A DNA stretch of 64,000 bases, taken from the NCBI GenBank assembly GCA_000004695.1, contig CM000152.2, forward strand, positions 1,248,001 through 1,312,000, read 5' to 3'. Shown here piece by piece: positions 4,810-57,131 of this stretch. Position 1 is the stretch's first letter; each line of letters begins with the position of its first letter. The position numbers were made by a program, and so were the translations under genes. This DNA comes from Dictyostelium discoideum. Taxonomy: Eukaryota. The notes under the pieces are model-generated. The model did not search any database. It had not been told where the DNA came from and saw only the letters and a program-made list of their open reading frames with translations.

Positions 4810-4982
4810 AATAGTAAAATAGTAAATATACCCTATTTTATTTTATCTTTAAAAATATCTATGTTTTTATTATGTATCTATTTTATTGGTTTGTTTTAAA
4901 TTACATATATATATTTTAGAGAATGGTTTTTATTTTTTTATTATTTATTATTTATTATTTATTATTTATTTATTATTTTATT

Positions 4983-7900
4983 TTAATGATCAAAATTATC
5001 ACTGAATTTTTGGATATAACGTTTTGCAACACCAGAGAAAGCTAAACTAATTGGACTATCTGGATTACGTCTGGTTAAAGCAGTTGCAATAACTTTTAAT
5101 ATTAAAGAGAATTCTTTTAAAAGAGTCCAAAGATCACTTTCTTTAATTTTGTTATCTTCAATTAATGGTTTCTTTTGTGAGTGTTTATAAAAATCCAAAA
5201 GGTATGAATTAACTGGAGAACCATCGACATTACAATAAGGTAAGATACGAGTTGAGAAATAAGTATTCGAACCAAGGATATTTTTCAATTTCTTTAAATT
5301 TGAAACCTTGAAAATACCAGAAAGTAAATCACCAGTATTGAAATTTTCAGTGGATGGTTTTAACTTTTCAAAGTTTTCATTCCATTTGTTTGTAATTGTT
5401 GATGTTGTCGCTGTTGTTGTTGTTGTTGTTGTTTTTTGAGAGTCTTTTAAATCATTTGATGAAAATGGTAAGAAATCATTGGTAGACTTTAAATATTTCT
5501 TATAAACGTAAAGGTAGGTTGAAAATGTTTTTAATAATCTATCATTATGATTTTTTATAATTTTGTGGACAGTTGGTGGTAATGGAGGAAGTATTAAAAT
5601 TGAAGGTGATCTAACATAAATTGATGGAATATTTTGAACACAAAATAAGTATGAAAGGATATGAATAATGAAGTAATCACAATCCTTTTGATTGGTTGGT
5701 AAATTATCAAATACACCACCCTTTAACAATGAAACAAAAGTAAAGTTAAATGGTTCTAAATAACTGAGATGGGTGACAATACCACTAAAGTTATCCATTG
5801 GAACACAGTCTTTAGATAAATAAGTTTCTCTATACAAATAATCAATTGAAAAAAGGAATTGGAATTGAACTTGAAGTGGATTACCTAAAAAGAATGAATT
5901 ATTTAAAAGTGATTTTGTTGATTTCTTTAAAATTTGAACATCTAATATATCTTCAGAACTTAATTTTTTTAAGCTTGTAGTTGTAGGTGTTTTTGTGGTT
6001 GTTGTAGTTGCTGGTGTATTTTCAGTTGTTGTAGTTGTAGGTGTAGTTGCAGGTGTTGTTTTGGTTGATTCCGCTGTTTCTTCTTCGTCATCATCCCAAT
6101 TATCAGCAACAGTAATTTCTTTTTTATCATCATCATCATCCCAATTATCAGCAATAGTTTCTTTCTCTTTCTCTTTTTCTTTTTCTTTTTCTTTTTCTTT
6201 TTCTCTTTCTTTTTCATTTTCTTTAACTTGAACTTTATTTTCTTCATTTGATTTATTAGCTGAGCCATTGGTAGAATAATCATATCTACTAACTAAAGAT
6301 AAACATAATGATGGAGAGACAACTGAATTACCAATGATATTTGATAATCTTGAATTAAGTAATCTGTTTATTTTTTGTTTTGGTAAGCCTACGAAAATTA
6401 CATTACCATAGTTATCAAAACCACGTCTACCAGCTCTACCAGCACATTGTTTTGAGGTTAAAACATTTAGATAAGGGCTATCACCTAAAAATACAGAGGA
6501 TTTAGCGGGAGCGTTAACACCAACGGCAAGTGTTGAAGTTGCAAATACCACTTGAATCTTTTTACTTCTAAATAGATATTCAACATTTCTAAGATAGTTT
6601 TTATCACAACCACCATGATGTGCGGCAATACCTTGTGTTAAAGCAGGTGCAAGTGGATCTTTCTTTACCTTTTCATCTATATCTGATGATAATAAATTAC
6701 CAAATTGAGGTTTTAAATAATCTAAAGAGGCTCTTTTTGCTTTTAATCTCTCCAATTCCATCTTTTCTGGATCATTTGGTTCTAAATCAGCCAAAGCACG
6801 ACCTAATGATTTTTGGAATCTTTCAATGACTAGATCCAATTGTTTCTTCTCTTCAATGATATTTGGATTTGTATTTCTATGAGTGATATCATTATATACT
6901 CTTTGAGCCAATCTAGAACATAAACTACGATTGAATGAAAAGAAAAGAGCTGGTAAAAGATCTTGCTTTTGAAGTTCCAATACAATATTTGTAATTTCAG
7001 AGGCCCAATCAAATTTCAATGAATCATTATATTTTGGACTAGTTAAAGCTTTGACAACCAATTGTTTCTCTGTCATAGATGGTAAGTTTGTGTAGAATTG
7101 TTTCAATTCTGCCTGATAGATTTCTATGTGTTGTTTCTCTAAATTGAATTGTTTATTTGGAATATTTGCAAAGAATTTAACAGGATCCAAATGGTTTACT
7201 TTTTCATAACCAAGCTTTTCTTTCAAAACCTGATACATTTGAATTGCTTCACCAGCTATTAATTTCAAATCTGGTGATATATCAGAGAGACCAGTTTTCT
7301 TTTGATCTAAAGTTGCCATTGGATGTAATGGTTCAATGGTATAGGTTGGAAAGCTCTTATTATCTTTTGCAGGAGTTTGACAAAGGAAAAAGTTTTTCAA
7401 ATCATTGAAACGACTTTGATAATGAATCAATGATACTTTTCTATTTGGATCAATCTTTTTCAAAAAGTTATGAAAATCTGTTAAATTACCCAATGTGGCT
7501 GATAATGCTAAAAATGGAGCAGGATTGAAAACTAACAATCTCTCCCAAATGGCACCATCGACAGAGGAAGCAATTTGATGAACTTCATCAAAGATTATAT
7601 ATCTACAACGTTGAATAAAGTGAGTGTTCATAATGGAGAGGAATAAAATCTCTAAACATTGTGGAACTGTAATTAAGATTTGACAAGTTTCAATGTTTAA
7701 TCTAAAATCTCTTGTGAAAACACCTACCATTTTATGATTTGATGGTCTATGATTTATAGCTTGATAGTTCTTATCATATCTACCCAATACTTCTGCATAC
7801 ATTTGGTTGACCAATGCTTTTGTTGGACAAACGAAAACAACGATACCATCATTACTTTCTTTTAAAATTTGTTCAAAACAATAGAAAGAAATAAAAGTTT

Positions 7901-13225: not shown

Positions 13226-13756
13226 ATGAACGGTCAAGGAAAGTATGTAGGATTTGGAAATGAAAAATCATCATCAGATTCACCATTTCCAGAATTACGT
13301 TCCAATTGGAGGGAACTCATTTATTTAAGATCTTGGCAAGCATCAGGTTTTGTTACAGTTTTATATTATTTCAGCTTTTTAGTTGGATTAATGTATTTCA
13401 TTCAAAACATTGTATTATTCACTAGAGACCTTGGTGCAGGTGGTTTCTTCCTTGGTTTACTCTATGGTACTTTGTATTTCATTAGTTTTATTTTAGCCGC
13501 TCGTATCGTTTCAGAAATCGTTTTATCAATTTTCGATATTAGAGATAACATTTACAGAATTTCAGCAAGCTCTGGTCCATCCATTGTTTCAAGTGGTCCA
13601 TCAACTTCATCATATCAAGGTTCATACCAACAACCAACTTATCAACCACCACAACCATCCCAACAACAACAACAACCATCCCAACAACAATCTTACCAAC
13701 AATCATCTTCAACTGAATTCCCAAAATACCAAGAACCATATCAAGGTAACCTTTAA
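13226..13756 (+). CDS. Hypothetical small membrane protein (176 aa): two predicted TM helices followed by a Q/P/Y/S-rich low-complexity tail
   Basis: ATG at 13226 with an A-rich leader. Hydrophobic segments FVTVLYYFSFLVGLMYFIQNIVLF and GGFFLGLLYGTLYFISFILAARIVSEIVLSIF. The tail reads SYQGSYQQPTYQPPQPSQQQQQPSQQQSYQQ. No family recognised. Confidence 0.5.
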   Translation: MNGQGKYVGFGNEKSSSDSPFPELRSNWRELIYLRSWQASGFVTVLYYFSFLVGLMYFIQNIVLFTRDLGAGGFFLGLLYGTLYFISFILAARIVSEIVLSIFDIRDNIYRISASSGPSIVSSGPSTSSYQGSYQQPTYQPPQPSQQQQQPSQQQSYQQSSSTEFPKYQEPYQGNL

Positions 13757-50187: not shown

Positions 50188-51957
50188 TTATGTTTCGACA
50201 TGATTATTAGAAGAACTATGGTGATGATGTTTCCAAGGGAAATGGAAATGGTGATGCTCATGATCACCTTCACTTTTATGATGTTGATGATTGTGATCAC
50301 CTTCTTTTGGTGAACCAAATAATTTAGCGATTGAATGTCTTCTGAAATGATTAAAGAAACCTTTCTTTCTCTCTTTTTCAGGTGAGGTAGAAAGTGGTGG
50401 AGAAATTGAACCATGACTGTCACCTATACTACCACTTGGACTATGTTTCTTCTTTGGTGTACCAATTTTGTGGAGATGACCATGAGGAAGATCAGAAGAT
50501 TGTGACAAAGGACCACTACCAGAACTTAATTCCAAAGCATTTAATTCAACAGGATGGGAAGCAGCTCTTGGCATATTAACCAAATCTGGATTACTTAAAT
50601 TTTTATTCTTCAATTCTAAAGAGGAGGATGATTTATTTAAAGAGGAAGGCTTTATATTCTTTTGTAATGGACTGTTGACAACATTACCATGATTATAATG
50701 TTCAGGAGAGGAAGGTCTTGAACTATCTGGTGAGGGAGTATTTGAAGAAGCTGGTGACATTGATTCACGATATCTATCTTCACATGGAGTCAAACCATGA
50801 AGTAAATGAGAGACTATATAATTGTTTTTCTTTGCTTGTTTGAATACTTTATGTTCCAATAGTTTGGAGGCATTTGGTCTTTTTGAAGGCTCTTTTTGGA
50901 GACACTTATCGACCAAATCCTTGTAGAGATGACTACAGACACCTTTATCCTCTTCCTCTTGAAGTGATGGTGAATTGCCAAATAATAAATTCATAAATAC
51001 TTTTGATGGAGGTAAATCGTAACCTGGTGGTTTTCCTCTGATCAATTCTATTGCAGTGATTCCAAATGACCATATATCAACGCCTTGATTATAGCCACGT
51101 TCTGATATGATTTCAGGTGCCATCCAACAAGGTGTACCAACGATAGTTTTTCTACTACAACATGTATTCTTTTCAAACATTGCACTAACACCGAAATCTG
51201 CCAACTCAATTGCACCATCTTCACCAATTAAAATATTATCACTCTTTAAATCTCTATGAATTCTTTGATGAGAATGAAGGTATTCCAAACCTTTCAATAG
51301 TGATTTCAATACAGTTACTGCCAACACCTCTGGGATACCATCTGGATATTTAAATTTCATAATGTCAGCTAATGAACCACCACCTAAATAATCCATAACC
51401 AACCAAAGTTGATTATTCTCCAAGAAAGAGGTATGATAATGAATGAGGTTTGGATGATTATTACCATTCATTACTTTAACTTCCTTTATAACATCCTTTA
51501 CAAATTGTGGATCCATTTTATCCAATTCCACTACTTTGATTGCAACATTCTCTTTCAATGGTATACAATAGGCTTTGAAAACTCTACCCTCTGTACCTTC
51601 ACCAATTGGTTCTATTAAATTGTATTGATTGGCTTGAGATGGATAATCTGATATAGTTTTAATTTGTTGAAGTTCTCTAATAATTGATTCTCTTCTTTCA
51701 TTAGAGATAACTTCTGAAATATGACTTGGTAATTTCTTTTTTTCTCCTATTGGTTCTTTACCATTGCCACCACCACTACTATTCATTAATTCCTCTTCTC
51801 TTGATGATGAATCAGAATCACTATCTGGTAAATCATGATGATTGGCATGTTCTATTCTATTATGTTGTGCACAAACATAATTATTATTATTATTACTATT
51901 ATTAATTTCCATTTTAAGTTTAAATGATACTTTTTTTTTTTTTTTTAATAACTTCAT
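50188..51957 (-). CDS. STE20-family Ser/Thr kinase of the OSR1/SPAK (fray) type with a His-rich C-terminus, 589 aa. The physiological start is possibly the second ATG at 51912.
   Basis: EPIGEGTEGRVFKAYCIPLKENVAIKVV, HRDLKSDNILIGEDGAIELADFGVS, GTPCWMAPEI and GYNQGVDIWSFGITAIEL. Resembles OSR1/STK39. The C-terminus HHKSEGDHEHHHFHFPWKHHHH. The first ATG is preceded by an A-rich leader. The second ATG has the better aaaATGg context. Confidence 0.8.
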   Translation of the reverse strand: MKLLKKKKKVSFKLKMEINNSNNNNNYVCAQHNRIEHANHHDLPDSDSDSSSREEELMNSSGGGNGKEPIGEKKKLPSHISEVISNERRESIIRELQQIKTISDYPSQANQYNLIEPIGEGTEGRVFKAYCIPLKENVAIKVVELDKMDPQFVKDVIKEVKVMNGNNHPNLIHYHTSFLENNQLWLVMDYLGGGSLADIMKFKYPDGIPEVLAVTVLKSLLKGLEYLHSHQRIHRDLKSDNILIGEDGAIELADFGVSAMFEKNTCCSRKTIVGTPCWMAPEIISERGYNQGVDIWSFGITAIELIRGKPPGYDLPPSKVFMNLLFGNSPSLQEEEDKGVCSHLYKDLVDKCLQKEPSKRPNASKLLEHKVFKQAKKNNYIVSHLLHGLTPCEDRYRESMSPASSNTPSPDSSRPSSPEHYNHGNVVNSPLQKNIKPSSLNKSSSSLELKNKNLSNPDLVNMPRAASHPVELNALELSSGSGPLSQSSDLPHGHLHKIGTPKKKHSPSGSIGDSHGSISPPLSTSPEKERKKGFFNHFRRHSIAKLFGSPKEGDHNHQHHKSEGDHEHHHFHFPWKHHHHSSSNNHVET

Positions 51958-52799
51958 TTTTATGTATTATTTTATTTTATTTTTTTAACACAAAAAAAAA
52001 AAAAATAGGAAAAGGAAAAGGGAAAGAAAAAGAGAAAAAAAAAAAAAAAATAGGGAATAGGGAATGAATTAATAAAAAAAAAAAAAAAAAAAAGTTTAAA
52101 ATAATAACATTAATATTACAGATAATTTAATACAATAGTATAAGAAAAAGAAGAAATTAGTGTAAGTATAATTGGATTAAATTTAAAACGGCTAAATTTT
52201 TTTTTTTTTTTTTTTTCCAAATTGGATTTTTATTTGCCAATTTTAAAAAATAAAATAATAATTAAATAAATAAAATTATAATAATTACCTTTTTTTTTAA
52301 AGTATCGTCAAATTTTATAATTTATCTGTATCTTGAAAAAAAATTTGTTTTTTAATTTTTTTTACTCTTTTGTGTGTAGAAGCTATATTATTATTATTAT
52401 TATTATTACTGTATTATAAGTAATTGCTGACACAAAATATTTTTAAAATAAAATTGTGCGTGGGTGTTGAAATATATATTGGTTTATATATATTTTATTT
52501 ATATGGTGATATTTTTTTATTTTTTTACTATATATATATAATTGCGTTGTTGGGTACTACTAGTATTTAAACTTTAACATTGAATATTTGATTATTCCTA
52601 GTGTTACTATTATTTATATTTTATATTTTATTGTATTATTAGTGGTGGTTCACTTTAATATTTGAAACCAATGTAATCTTTTTATTATTAATTGAATCTA
52701 AGGCTTTTAATATAAAATCAAAAACCAAATAAATAAATAAATAAAAACCCTTCGGGGATATTATAATGAGATGAATGTAAATTTAATATAATGTATAAA

Positions 52800-52850
52800 G
52801 TGTGGGTGTTGTGGTGTGTGTGTGTGTGTGTTTTTTTTTAGTGTGGGTTT
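52800..52850. promoter_or_regulatory. GT-rich G-box / CA-element-like sequence (tgtgggtgttgtggtgtgtgtgtgtgtgtg ... gtgtgggtt). Candidate GBF-type binding site.
   Basis: GT-rich G/C-containing tracts are rare in this genome and match the half-site character (GTGTGGG) of Dictyostelium G-box binding factor elements. Lies in a 3.2-kb intergenic region upstream of the STE20 kinase on the minus strand. Confidence 0.35.
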
Positions 52851-54711: not shown

Positions 54712-54742
54712 TATAAAATATCAATTTAAAAATATTTTCCAG

Positions 54743-55056
54743 TAACGTTCAGAGAAAGAATTAAAATATTCGAAAATGATTTTGTAACGTTGCATTTTTT
54801 TTTTTTTAATTTTTTTTTCCACCCCTTTTCCCAAATATTTTTTTGGGCAACCCAAAGTTAAATATTGATTTTTTATTTTACACAGTAACGTAATTTCTTT
54901 GTAATGAATTACATTTTAAAAAAAAAAAAAACTTATTAATTTAGGTTTTGTAACGTTGAATTTTTTTTTTTTTTTTTTTTTTAAAACGTTATAAAAAGGA
55001 ATTTTTTTTTTCAAAGTGTTTCATTAAAAAAAAAAAAACAAAAACAATAACGTTGC
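54743..55056. promoter_or_regulatory. Cluster of six ACGT-core motifs, mostly GTAACGTT: tttgtaacgttg x2, cagtaacgt x2, aataacgttg, aaaacgtta. They lie 65-380 bp upstream of the His-rich protein gene.
   Basis: Direct reading at 54743-54750, 54784-54791, 54896-54903, 54950-54957, 54984-54991 and 55047-55056. The CpG-containing palindromic core AACGTT is otherwise almost absent from the window. Confidence 0.4.
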
Positions 55057-55120
55057 TAAATAAAAAATAAAAAAAAAAAGTATATAATAAATAATATATC
55101 AAAATTAATAATTAAAAATA

Positions 55121-55711
55121 ATGGAAAATCAAAAACAATCAGAATCAAATAATATTGATAACAACAACAATTCATCATCATCATCACCATCATCTCCAGT
55201 ATTTAAAACAATTTTTGAAAATTTGCCAAGTGATGTAAAGGAAAGAAAACAATACATTTACCAAATTAAAAAAGCTCTTAAAGATGAAAAAAGAAAATTA
55301 AAAGAATCAAAACCTGAAAAGTATGCTAAACATTGCAAGCGTGAAAAACATGAAAGTCATCATTTCCATGGTCTCCACTTCCATCCAGAGCATCAATTCG
55401 GAGGACACCACTTTGGTGGTCATCATCACCATCATGGTGGTCATCATCATCATGGTCATCATCATGGCCATCACCATGGTGGTCATCACGGACATCATTT
55501 CGAAGGTCGTCACGGTCATTCTCAAGATATTCAAGGTTGTAGTACTCCAAATAAAATTAACCTTTTAAATAAAAAAAAACAAGTTTTAATTGCTAAAACC
55601 CAACTCCTTGAAGCAAAAATAGCCACATTGAGTGAAATCAACCAAAATAAAACTAGCACACCACCACCAACTTCAATTGAATCAGTTGTTGGAACTTTTA
55701 GTCAAATGTAA
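55121..55711 (+). CDS. Histidine-rich protein (196 aa): (G/H)-repeat block HHFHGLHFHPEHQFGGHHFGGHHHHHGGHHHHGHHHGHHHGGHHGHHFEGRHGH flanked by Lys-rich helical regions
   Basis: Single ORF with a good aaaATGg start. The sequence composition suggests a metal-binding His/Gly repeat, but no function is known. Confidence 0.5.
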   Translation: MENQKQSESNNIDNNNNSSSSSPSSPVFKTIFENLPSDVKERKQYIYQIKKALKDEKRKLKESKPEKYAKHCKREKHESHHFHGLHFHPEHQFGGHHFGGHHHHHGGHHHHGHHHGHHHGGHHGHHFEGRHGHSQDIQGCSTPNKINLLNKKKQVLIAKTQLLEAKIATLSEINQNKTSTPPPTSIESVVGTFSQM

Positions 55712-56619
55712 TAAAAATATTAATTTTGGATTTTTTTTTCCTTTTTAATTAAACTTAAAAATAAATAAAATAAAATTTAGAATTATTTCAAAATATCAGT
55801 TTTTTTTTTTTTTATCTTTTTTTAATATATTAACTTTTCTGAATCTGTATGTTCATATAAAATTTTTTTTTCTCTAAACCTTTTTCGACTTATTTTAATT
55901 TCATTTTTCTTTTTTTTTTTTTTTTTTTTTTTTATTAAAAATATTACTTTATGAAAATCCAGTAGATTAATAAAAAAAGAATTGGATTTTATTTTTTATT
56001 TTTTTTATTTTTTTATTTATTTATATATTTTTATTTAAATTTTACAATTTCAGAATGTTATTAATATTTTTTTTTTTTAATTTTTTTTAAATTTTTTTTA
56101 TACATTTAAAATTAAAAAATAGATTGATTGATACAAGTTTTTGTTCCATTCTTTTAAAATTTAAGTAAACACACATTTTTTGTTTTTAATAAATTACTAA
56201 ATGTATGTTTACTTAAGTTTTAAAAAAACGATTTTATTTTTTAATTTAATTTTATTTTTTTGTAAAGTTTAAAAAAAAAAAAAATTTTTTTTTTTTCAAT
56301 TTAATTTATAGGATATAACAATTAAAAACTATCAGAAATAAATAAAGATGAAAAATGTAAAAGTAATCTTTTATTTAGTGGTCATTACTCTTATCATTCC
56401 AGTCAACACTTTGTAGGTCATTTTAGTCATCTTATCCATCACAATCATCACCATATCCAACAACTCAATCCATCTAAAACATCAAATAAATAAATAAATA
56501 AATAAATAAATAAACCTTTAAAATATTTTAATGTTTCTTTTTTTTATTTTATTTTATTTTATTTAATTTTATTCTTTTAAAATAAAAAAAAACAAATAAA
56601 AATAATTATTTTATTATTT

Positions 56620-57131
56620 TTAAGTTAAATCAGATAGTTTAACTCCTCTTGGTTCAAGTTTTAATGATAAAGAGAATAAACCTTCATCACTCATTGGAAC
56701 AAAAGAATGGGCAGGTCTTGGTATGATATGAGCTTGATGGGATGGATCAAACGATTTTCTTTTAAAGAGAGAAGAAGAAGGTTGATGATAAATCAAAGAA
56801 GATGACGATTGTGACGATGATGATGATGATGGTTGTTGATTAATGATTTGATTACTTTGACTAGAGATATTATTGATTGTACTTGGTGAAGTACTACCAC
56901 TATTACCATTTTGTGGTGAATTATTAGCAGATCTTGGTGTATTTAAACCATTAGATTTCAAAAGTGAGCCTGAAGTTGGTGATAATGGATTAATACTATG
57001 AATATTTGATGTTGATACACTCTTTCTTCTATTCTTTGTAAATTGTTGGCCTTTAACTAAAAATAATAATTCTTCAGAAATTATAGAAGAAGTATTGGAT
57101 GATGATGTTACAAAACTACCACTACCATTAC

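Follow-up and report, generated by a model that had tools for sequence, protein, structure and literature searches.

Does the dense run of ACGT-containing motifs directly upstream of a histidine-rich protein gene of Dictyostelium discoideum mark a dedicated promoter, and if so, what would that promoter respond to? The gene lies near the end of a 64,000-nucleotide stretch (positions 1,248,001 to 1,312,000 of contig CM000152.2, assembly GCA_000004695.1; hereafter the window), in which an open reading frame (ORF) starting at position 55121 encodes a protein with a long histidine/glycine tract. The first-pass annotation of this DNA, made from the sequence alone, had described six AACGT motifs within 320 bp of the ATG and had proposed an inducible promoter, perhaps of a metal- or stress-responsive unit. 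Comparison with orthologous and paralogous promoters indicates, with a probability of about 80%, that these motifs form a true cis-regulatory module that has been conserved and whose building block is an orphan palindrome. By analogy with a paralogous gene, a role in late development is more likely for it than one in metal stress.

The TAACGT site cluster

All six motifs are present where they had been reported, but their real extent is from −378 to −68 relative to the ATG, i.e. they occupy 311 bp that reach further upstream than the 320 bp given. The word TAACGT starts at positions 54743, 54785, 54886, 54951 and 55048 on the plus strand and is found at 54986–54991 on the minus strand, site 5 (aaaacgttat) being the same word in the opposite orientation. 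The internal repeats noted earlier are also there, with an identical 12-mer, tttgtaacgttg, at 54781 and 54947 and the 9-mer cagtaacgt at 54740 and 54883. In contrast, GTAACGTT, which had been put forward as the motif of the whole cluster, occurs in only three of the six sites, and the core common to them is TAACGT (6/6) or TAACGTT (5/6).

The concentration of this core far exceeds what chance would give. The window has about 20% G+C, with intergenic sequence made of poly(dA/dT) and ORFs rich in Asn and Gln. Six of the eight TAACGT words of the whole window fall inside the 311 bp (p ~5e-10 if sites were placed uniformly), and not one is found in the 25,111 bases of remaining intergenic sequence within the window. 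Furthermore, six of the seven CpG dinucleotides between 54700 and 55120 lie inside the motif. The shorter word AACGTT is not rare per se, with 25 matches in the window, 12 of them within a coding tandem repeat (621–1169) and its continuation; the window-wide excess of AACGTT is largely due to this 30-bp repeat and its degenerate continuation. The repeat itself comprises 18 copies with the consensus AAAGAGAGATTAGAAGCTGAACGTCTCGAA, degenerates to about position 1370 inside an ORF at 51–2768, encodes a 10-residue repeat and bears no relation to the promoter motif. The spacings of the six sites (42, 101, 65, 33 and 64 bp) differ between species, and helical phasing of the sites was therefore dropped from consideration.

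Conservation among orthologous promoters

The orthologues compared were those of D. firmibasis (L001, P0003), of D. dimigraforme (L002, P0002) and of an assembly labelled D. discoideum (L003, P0001), the last matching the window collinearly, with a DNA identity of about 90%. TAACGT-type sites are kept in each of them, six in L001 and five in L002, in both often as the full TAACGTTA, and all six in L003. With the sites set aside, the upstream regions of L001 and L002 can be aligned with the window only in A/T runs; the synonymous divergence (dS) of the gene from these two orthologues is 0.65–0.80, and unconstrained positions have thus largely turned over between them and the window. At least three sites are nevertheless conserved in position: the one followed by a box of the CCCACC type, the composite TAACGTAATTT...TGTAAT, and the proximal site, whose distance from the ATG is 66–87 bp in each of the four histidine-rich gene promoters. 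The counterpart of site 3 is ATAACGTAAT in L001, GTAACGTAAT in L003 and AACGTTACGTAAT in L002, where it includes the perfect palindrome TTACGTAA. Site 4 has no positional counterpart in the alignment with L001 and L002.

The surroundings of the gene have not been kept in the same way. In D. discoideum its neighbours are a protein kinase gene (50188–51957, minus strand) and a large RasGEF gene. The window has only the gene itself in common with L001 and L002 and none of its flanking genes, so that the ORF and its promoter of about 0.4–0.5 kb have stayed together through rearrangement. A triose-phosphate isomerase gene adjoins the histidine-rich gene in both L001 (5095–5973) and L002 (5049–5911), the corresponding segment compared in the window being 55711–56620.

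A pseudogenised orthologue was identified at 2699–3351 of L007 (GCA_054859205.1, labelled 'D. cf. discoideum'). It begins with ME*, i.e. with a stop at codon 3, and contains several further frameshifts and stops, the annotated 120-aa protein P0004 being a fragment of it. Its upstream spacer (~0.3 kb) has no TAACGT or AACGTT site and provides a natural control; the loss fits a scenario in which only a functional gene retains its sites, although assembly errors in homopolymer runs are possible at L007.

The histidine-rich protein and its paralogue

That the downstream product is rich in histidine and glycine was borne out. AlphaFold predicts helices at residues 39–62 and 142–176 (predicted local distance difference test, pLDDT, ~90) and disorder at residues 67–140, with a predicted template modelling score (pTM) of 0.23, and the length of the His/Gly tract varies across species. 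No Pfam family matches the 196-aa protein, and a search of 1.8 billion representative proteins found only a handful of uncharacterised Dictyostelium proteins related to it; the gene family is confined to D. discoideum and close relatives. Pairwise ratios of nonsynonymous to synonymous substitution rates (dN/dS) between orthologues are 0.21–0.31, from which it follows that the ORF at 55121–55711 is a real gene under purifying selection. However, no protein of the AX4 reference strain matching it was found in a collection of 5.8 billion proteins, in which the AX4 proteins of its neighbours and of its paralogue are present, and the gene therefore appears to be unannotated in the D. discoideum AX4 reference. 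In L003 (6001–7533) the 262-aa model P0001 reads through a spurious intron, whereas the uninterrupted ORF ends in ...GTFSQM after 198 aa, as in the window.

DDB_G0277209 (124 aa) was the sole AX4 homologue found, also when a profile search was included. The profile search showed that it has the N-terminal motif LPxDxKERKQYI...LKDEKRKLK and the C-terminal helix LNKKKQ...KTQLIESKI in common with the histidine-rich protein; it does not have the His/Gly tract. Promoters of this paralogue were taken from five genomes, namely L004, L008, L011, L010 (D. citrinum) and L009 (D. dimigraforme), and keep two to four sites each. All five have a distal TAACGTTA; in front of it stands a CCCACC box in L004 and L008, while L009, L010 and L011 have related C-rich words there. 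All five also have a proximal arrangement of TATAAAAGG, a T-run and AACGTTAC(C/A)AACA. Two additional sites are found in each of the L009 and L010 promoters, and in L009 a site abuts the TATA box, as site 5 does in the window. A long (AAAT)n microsatellite (4893–4999) in the 5' leader of L004 separates the proximal TAACGTTAC site from the ATG, and for this reason the site lies at −142 there, compared with −51 to −54 in the other species.

Published expression data exist for DDB_G0277209 (Supplementary file 5 of PMC6198379). At 0, 4, 8, 12, 16, 20 and 24 h of the time course its values are 0.30, 0, 0.87, 0.97, 6.7, 5.7 and 24.7, and by cell type they are 46.3 in cup, 0.74 in spore, 1.16 in stalk and 0.82 in vegetative cells, with two further values of 20.7 and 7.7 in the same row (PMC6198379). 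The paralogue is thus silent in growth, rises from 16 h, and is expressed late and with enrichment in the cup. Factors enriched in the cup are srfA, mybE, bzpH, a cudA-like gene, an NF-X1 gene and bzpD (PMC6198379). DDB_G0277209 is absent from the list of DIF-1-induced genes in Table S1 of PMC2845816, which derives from a microarray at a single time point, and likewise from the SpaA targets, the life-cycle proteome and the supplements examined of the cdl1a- study.

Definition of the motif

A matrix was compiled from 27 sites in six family promoters. TAACGT is invariant in it, preceded by a purine at −5 in 24 of the 27 sites and followed by T (24/27), A (12/27) and a pyrimidine (22/27), which defines the 10-bp palindrome RTAACGTTAY; nine of the compiled sites are perfect copies of TAACGTTA. 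Every ACGT in these six promoters lies in, or abuts, a TAACGT-type site. The same core emerged without prior choice when 6-mers in five family promoters were ranked against the intergenic background of the window: TAACGT came first (29 against 0.05 expected, in 5/5 promoters), GTAACG, AACGTT and ATAACG came next, and CCACCC and CCCACC were in the top dozen. Word counts, given here and below with their expectation, cover nine family promoters of 4.4 kb in total, in which AACGTT occurs 34 times compared with 0.6 expected. Text searches of the literature combining Dictyostelium with AACGTT, TAACG or TAACGTTA yielded only primers and generic oligonucleotides. The earlier claim that the motifs are non-random and mark a dedicated, regulated promoter is thus upheld by their conservation in orthologous and paralogous promoters alike.

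A conserved regulatory module and its probable output

Since they are conserved both in related species and in the sister gene, the six sites are almost certainly binding sites for one factor, and we infer that a single sequence-specific transcription factor would bind them. The 10-bp palindrome points to a factor that binds as a dimer and recognises the TAAC half-site twice, in inverted orientation, about the central CG. Together with the C-rich box, and in the histidine-rich gene also with the element TTCNNNGAA, the sites would make up a promoter/enhancer module that serves a small gene family. Their differing quality over about 300 bp, with one site at the TATA box and another about 70 bp from the ATG, might make transcription cooperative and switch-like. 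By analogy with the paralogue, the likeliest output would be silence in growth followed by activation late in development, at culmination, in cup or anterior-like cells; for the histidine-rich gene itself, the odds of such a late, possibly cup-type output are about even.

The arrangement resembles homotypic site clusters of developmental enhancers, with several sites within about 300 bp, turnover of individual sites and maintenance of their number, and no difference in kind was recognised. The locus belongs to a common kind, a eukaryotic promoter in which factor sites are reiterated, and its worth lies in an unusually clean element and an apparently unannotated gene. Few Dictyostelium cis-elements are defined well enough for target prediction. 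The present one is a sharply defined 10-bp word with near-zero background in AT-rich intergenic DNA and with a footprint across species and paralogues; when multimerised, e.g. as GTAACGTTAC, it would be a practical bait for its binding factor. The promoter offers a compact, ready-made unit for tests of late, possibly cup-specific, expression, and the analysis flags a conserved, selected ORF apparently missing from the AX4 protein set.

Several points weigh against this interpretation. Support for the histidine-rich gene itself comes from sequence, and the expression pattern is that of the paralogue; the gene is missing from published expression tables because it has no AX4 protein entry. As neither the DIF-1-induced list nor the cdl1a- supplements include the paralogue, no known cup pathway is linked to it. 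The species compared are close relatives and not independent samples, and the motif counts cover the 64-kb window and the family promoters, so that they do not distinguish a wider regulon from a family-private element. Perfect palindromes are lacking among the six D. discoideum sites, and a factor reading TAACGTT as a monomer is therefore also conceivable.

A more far-reaching version would make RTAACGTTAY the site of a factor with undescribed specificity, defining a small, recently evolved regulon of culmination or cup cells in group-4 Dictyostelia, which we regard as rather unlikely. In its boldest form, the family's own products, each with a basic N-terminal and a heptad-leucine C-terminal helix, may bind RTAACGTTAY as dimers and autoregulate, and the His/Gly tract of one member could act as a metal or pH sensor.

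Candidate binding factors

Two known classes of factor were considered and judged about equally likely, a bZIP and a Myb-type protein, with some other or novel factor taking the remainder. ACGT-core palindromes are classical bZIP targets and include the CRE (cAMP response element) TGACGTCA, the PAR/E4BP4 site RTTAYGTAAY and the plant 'T-box' AACGTT. One of the roughly 19 Dictyostelium bZIPs is accordingly a tentative candidate, which would bind TAAC-GTTA as a variant of the TGAC-GTCA (CRE) or TTAC-GTAA (PAR) octamers. The family element has the dyad-symmetric ACGT centre of such sites, with T at ±4, A at ±2 and purine/pyrimidine at ±5, and bZIP sites of the 10-bp RTTAYGTAAY type have the same R/Y-flanked layout. 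The hybrid TAAC-GTAA of site 3, conserved in three genomes and overlapped by the perfect TTACGTAA in D. dimigraforme, fits the same pattern. The family element differs from the bZIP palindromes in its A at ±3, which places the half-site TAAC outside the TGAC, TTAC, TTGC and CCAC classes; TAAC is not a described bZIP half-site to our knowledge, and we know of no bZIP that prefers A at ±3. Moreover, the CRE is absent from the family promoters and the PAR octamer occurs once. Two bZIP genes, bzpH and bzpD, are among those enriched in the cup (PMC6198379), but the mapped sites of the Dictyostelium bZIP DimB are C-rich and contain no ACGT (PMC3253789, PMC2845816), for which reason DimB itself was rejected as the ACGT-binding factor.

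The core TAAC is also the canonical Myb core. The sites may thus be those of MybE or a related Myb, as in ecmA(O) and mrrA, which are expressed in anterior-like, cup and basal-disc cells, with a C-rich DimB-type site nearby; this identification is doubtful, though the resemblance extends to several features. Among described elements, the MybE consensus AAC(a/t)GTT comes nearest. It was drawn up from two sites of ecmA and one of mrrA (PMC2845816, citing Fukuzawa 2006 and Tsujioka 2007) and likewise consists of AAC and GTT halves in inverted order. In ecmO, no more than about 100 nt separate MybE sites from DimB sites (PMC2845816), and the family sites are for their part accompanied by a CCCACC box. 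In both cases the promoters are AT-rich and developmental. DimB binds CCCCAC in pspA (PMC3253789). As far as the paralogue is concerned, a cup context applies as well: mrrA, for which a Myb site is essential, is expressed in cup and basal disc, its lower-cup expression is lost in mybE- cells, and mybE is the most cup-enriched factor (903 transcripts per million, 8.4-fold; PMC6198379), the paralogue studied here also being cup-enriched.

The family element, however, is a 10-bp palindrome, reiterated five to six times, and lacks the central extra base of the MybE consensus in 27/27 compiled sites. AAC(A/T)GTT itself occurs once in the family promoters against 0.8 expected, in marked contrast to the count of AACGTT, and the canonical YAACKG occurs three times against 2.0 expected, the family sites having T and not G at position 6. 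The DimB consensus A(c/a)AC(a/c)(t/a)CA has no match and the CCCCAC S site one match in these promoters. DDB_G0277209 is missing from the set of genes induced by DIF-1 and dependent on MybE/DimB, which counts for little with a single-time-point microarray. The MybE consensus itself rests on just three sites, and the MybE and DimB consensuses were scarcely enriched in the target sets of these two factors (PMC2845816).

Improbable alternatives: metal or stress response, absence of function

A histidine-rich composition of the kind found here is typical of metal-binding sequences. The first-pass annotation had accordingly read the ACGT motifs as response elements that induce a metal-binding peptide under Zn, Cu, Ni or other stress, a proposal that we now consider improbable. 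In its favour are the 29 histidines of the 57-residue tract, which is predicted to be disordered; the protein does have a low-complexity histidine-rich tract, but shows no homology to a known metal-binding family. Evidence against it comes from the paralogue. Because the same motif architecture stands upstream of a gene without the tract, the motif is not tied to it, and the expression pattern of that gene is developmental and cell-type-specific. In addition, the nine family promoters contain no MTF-1 metal response element, Zap1 zinc-responsive element, plant zinc-deficiency response element, copper response element, Aft1 site or heat-shock element (consensuses from general knowledge), and the only stress-type words in them are two stray AGGGG. 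No link between AACGTT and metal or stress in Dictyostelium was found in the library searched. Beyond the composition of its product, the metal- or stress-responsive unit thus found no support.

That the repeats have no regulatory function and merely go back to local duplication, to the remains of a mobile element or to chance in DNA of this composition is very improbable: AT-rich DNA is repetitive, and the 12-mer and the 9-mer each shared by two sites could stem from small duplications, but the sites are kept in other species and in the paralogue amid unrelated flanks, the core of site 4 survives an indel in L003, TAACGT is missing from 25 kb of comparable intergenic DNA, and no structured RNA (Rfam family) or tRNA was found in the region.

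Accessory elements and other features of the region

In addition to the TAACGT sites, the promoter contains several elements that are listed, with the gene and its neighbourhood, in Table 1. The exact match to DDB_G0278831 given there assigns the window to strain AX4 or one almost identical to it.

Table 1. Positions of the TAACGT sites, accessory elements and genes in the 64-kb window.
Feature	Position	Strand	Remarks
Site 1, GTAACGTTCA, RTAACGTT core	54742–54751	+	Intact in L003
TTCAGAGAA, a TTCNNNGAA (STAT/GAS-like) element	54748–54756	.	Overlaps 3' end of site 1
Site 2, GTAACGTTGC	54784–54793	+	Upstream of C-rich box; position kept, aligns with TTAACGTTACA in L001 and L002; intact in L003
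C-rich box CCACCCCTTTTCCC	54819–54832	.	CCCACC-type, GBF/CAE-like or DimB-like; conserved
Site 3, GTAACGTAAT	54885–54894	+	Hybrid half-sites TAAC-GTAA; position kept in L001, L002 and L003
Inverted repeat TGTAAT-GA-ATTACA	54900–54913	.	Just 3' of site 3
Site 4, GTAACGTTGA	54950–54959	+	TAACGTT kept in L003 despite an indel altering the 5' flank
Site 5, AAAACGTTAT on plus strand (ATAACGTTTT on minus strand)	54983–54992	-	Fused to TATA-like box; intact in L003
TATA-like box TATAAAAAGG, then oligo(dT) run	54990–55012	+	Putative core promoter, read from sequence
Site 6, ATAACGTTGC	55047–55056	+	Proximal, −71 from ATG; full palindrome TAACGTTA in L003
Histidine-rich gene, ORF of 196 aa	55121–55711	+	Basic N-terminal helix, disordered His/Gly tract, C-terminal heptad-leucine helix
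His/Gly-rich tract, residues 79–135	55355–55525	+	29 His and 14 Gly in 57 residues
Neighbourhood ORF	13226–13753		Exact match to DDB_G0278831 (AX4)
Neighbourhood gene, Aip1 (WD40)	35867

The C-rich box beside site 2 is also found in L001 (CCCACCC) and L002 (CCACCCCC), and in the paralogue promoters of L004 and L008 it stands beside the distal palindrome. Words of the CCCACC/CCACCC type occur eight times in the family promoters compared with 0.6 expected. A conserved CCCACC-type box near a cell-type element in an AT-rich promoter is the arrangement known from the GBF CA-rich elements (CAEs) or G-boxes of cotC and pspA and from the DimB 'S' site CCCCAC (PMC3253789). The likeness concerns the accessory box only and not the TAACGTT sites, and the exact DimB words are not present. 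In L001 (3632–3647) and L002 (3650–3665), CACGTGG, an E-box or G-box, directly follows the distal GTAACGTT site; it is not present in D. discoideum.

The STAT/GAS-like element TTCNNNGAA is found once in each of the four histidine-rich gene promoters, those other than the window carrying it as TTCAAAGAA (L003 5632, L001 3694 and L002 3704), and the family promoters contain five elements of this type against 0.6 expected. The TGTAAT arm of the inverted repeat lies at the same offset in L001, L002 and L003, while the second arm is not conserved; the arm following site 3 is reminiscent of homeodomain half-sites. Assignment of the transcription start site is uncertain because a second TATA-like stretch is found at 55080–55092. 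In the 3.1-kb spacer between the kinase gene and the histidine-rich gene, a G/T-rich stretch, gtgtgggtgttgtggtgtgtgtgtgtgtgtg...agtgtgggtt (52795–52850), is similar to G-boxes of the GBF type and might be part of the divergent promoter of the kinase gene.

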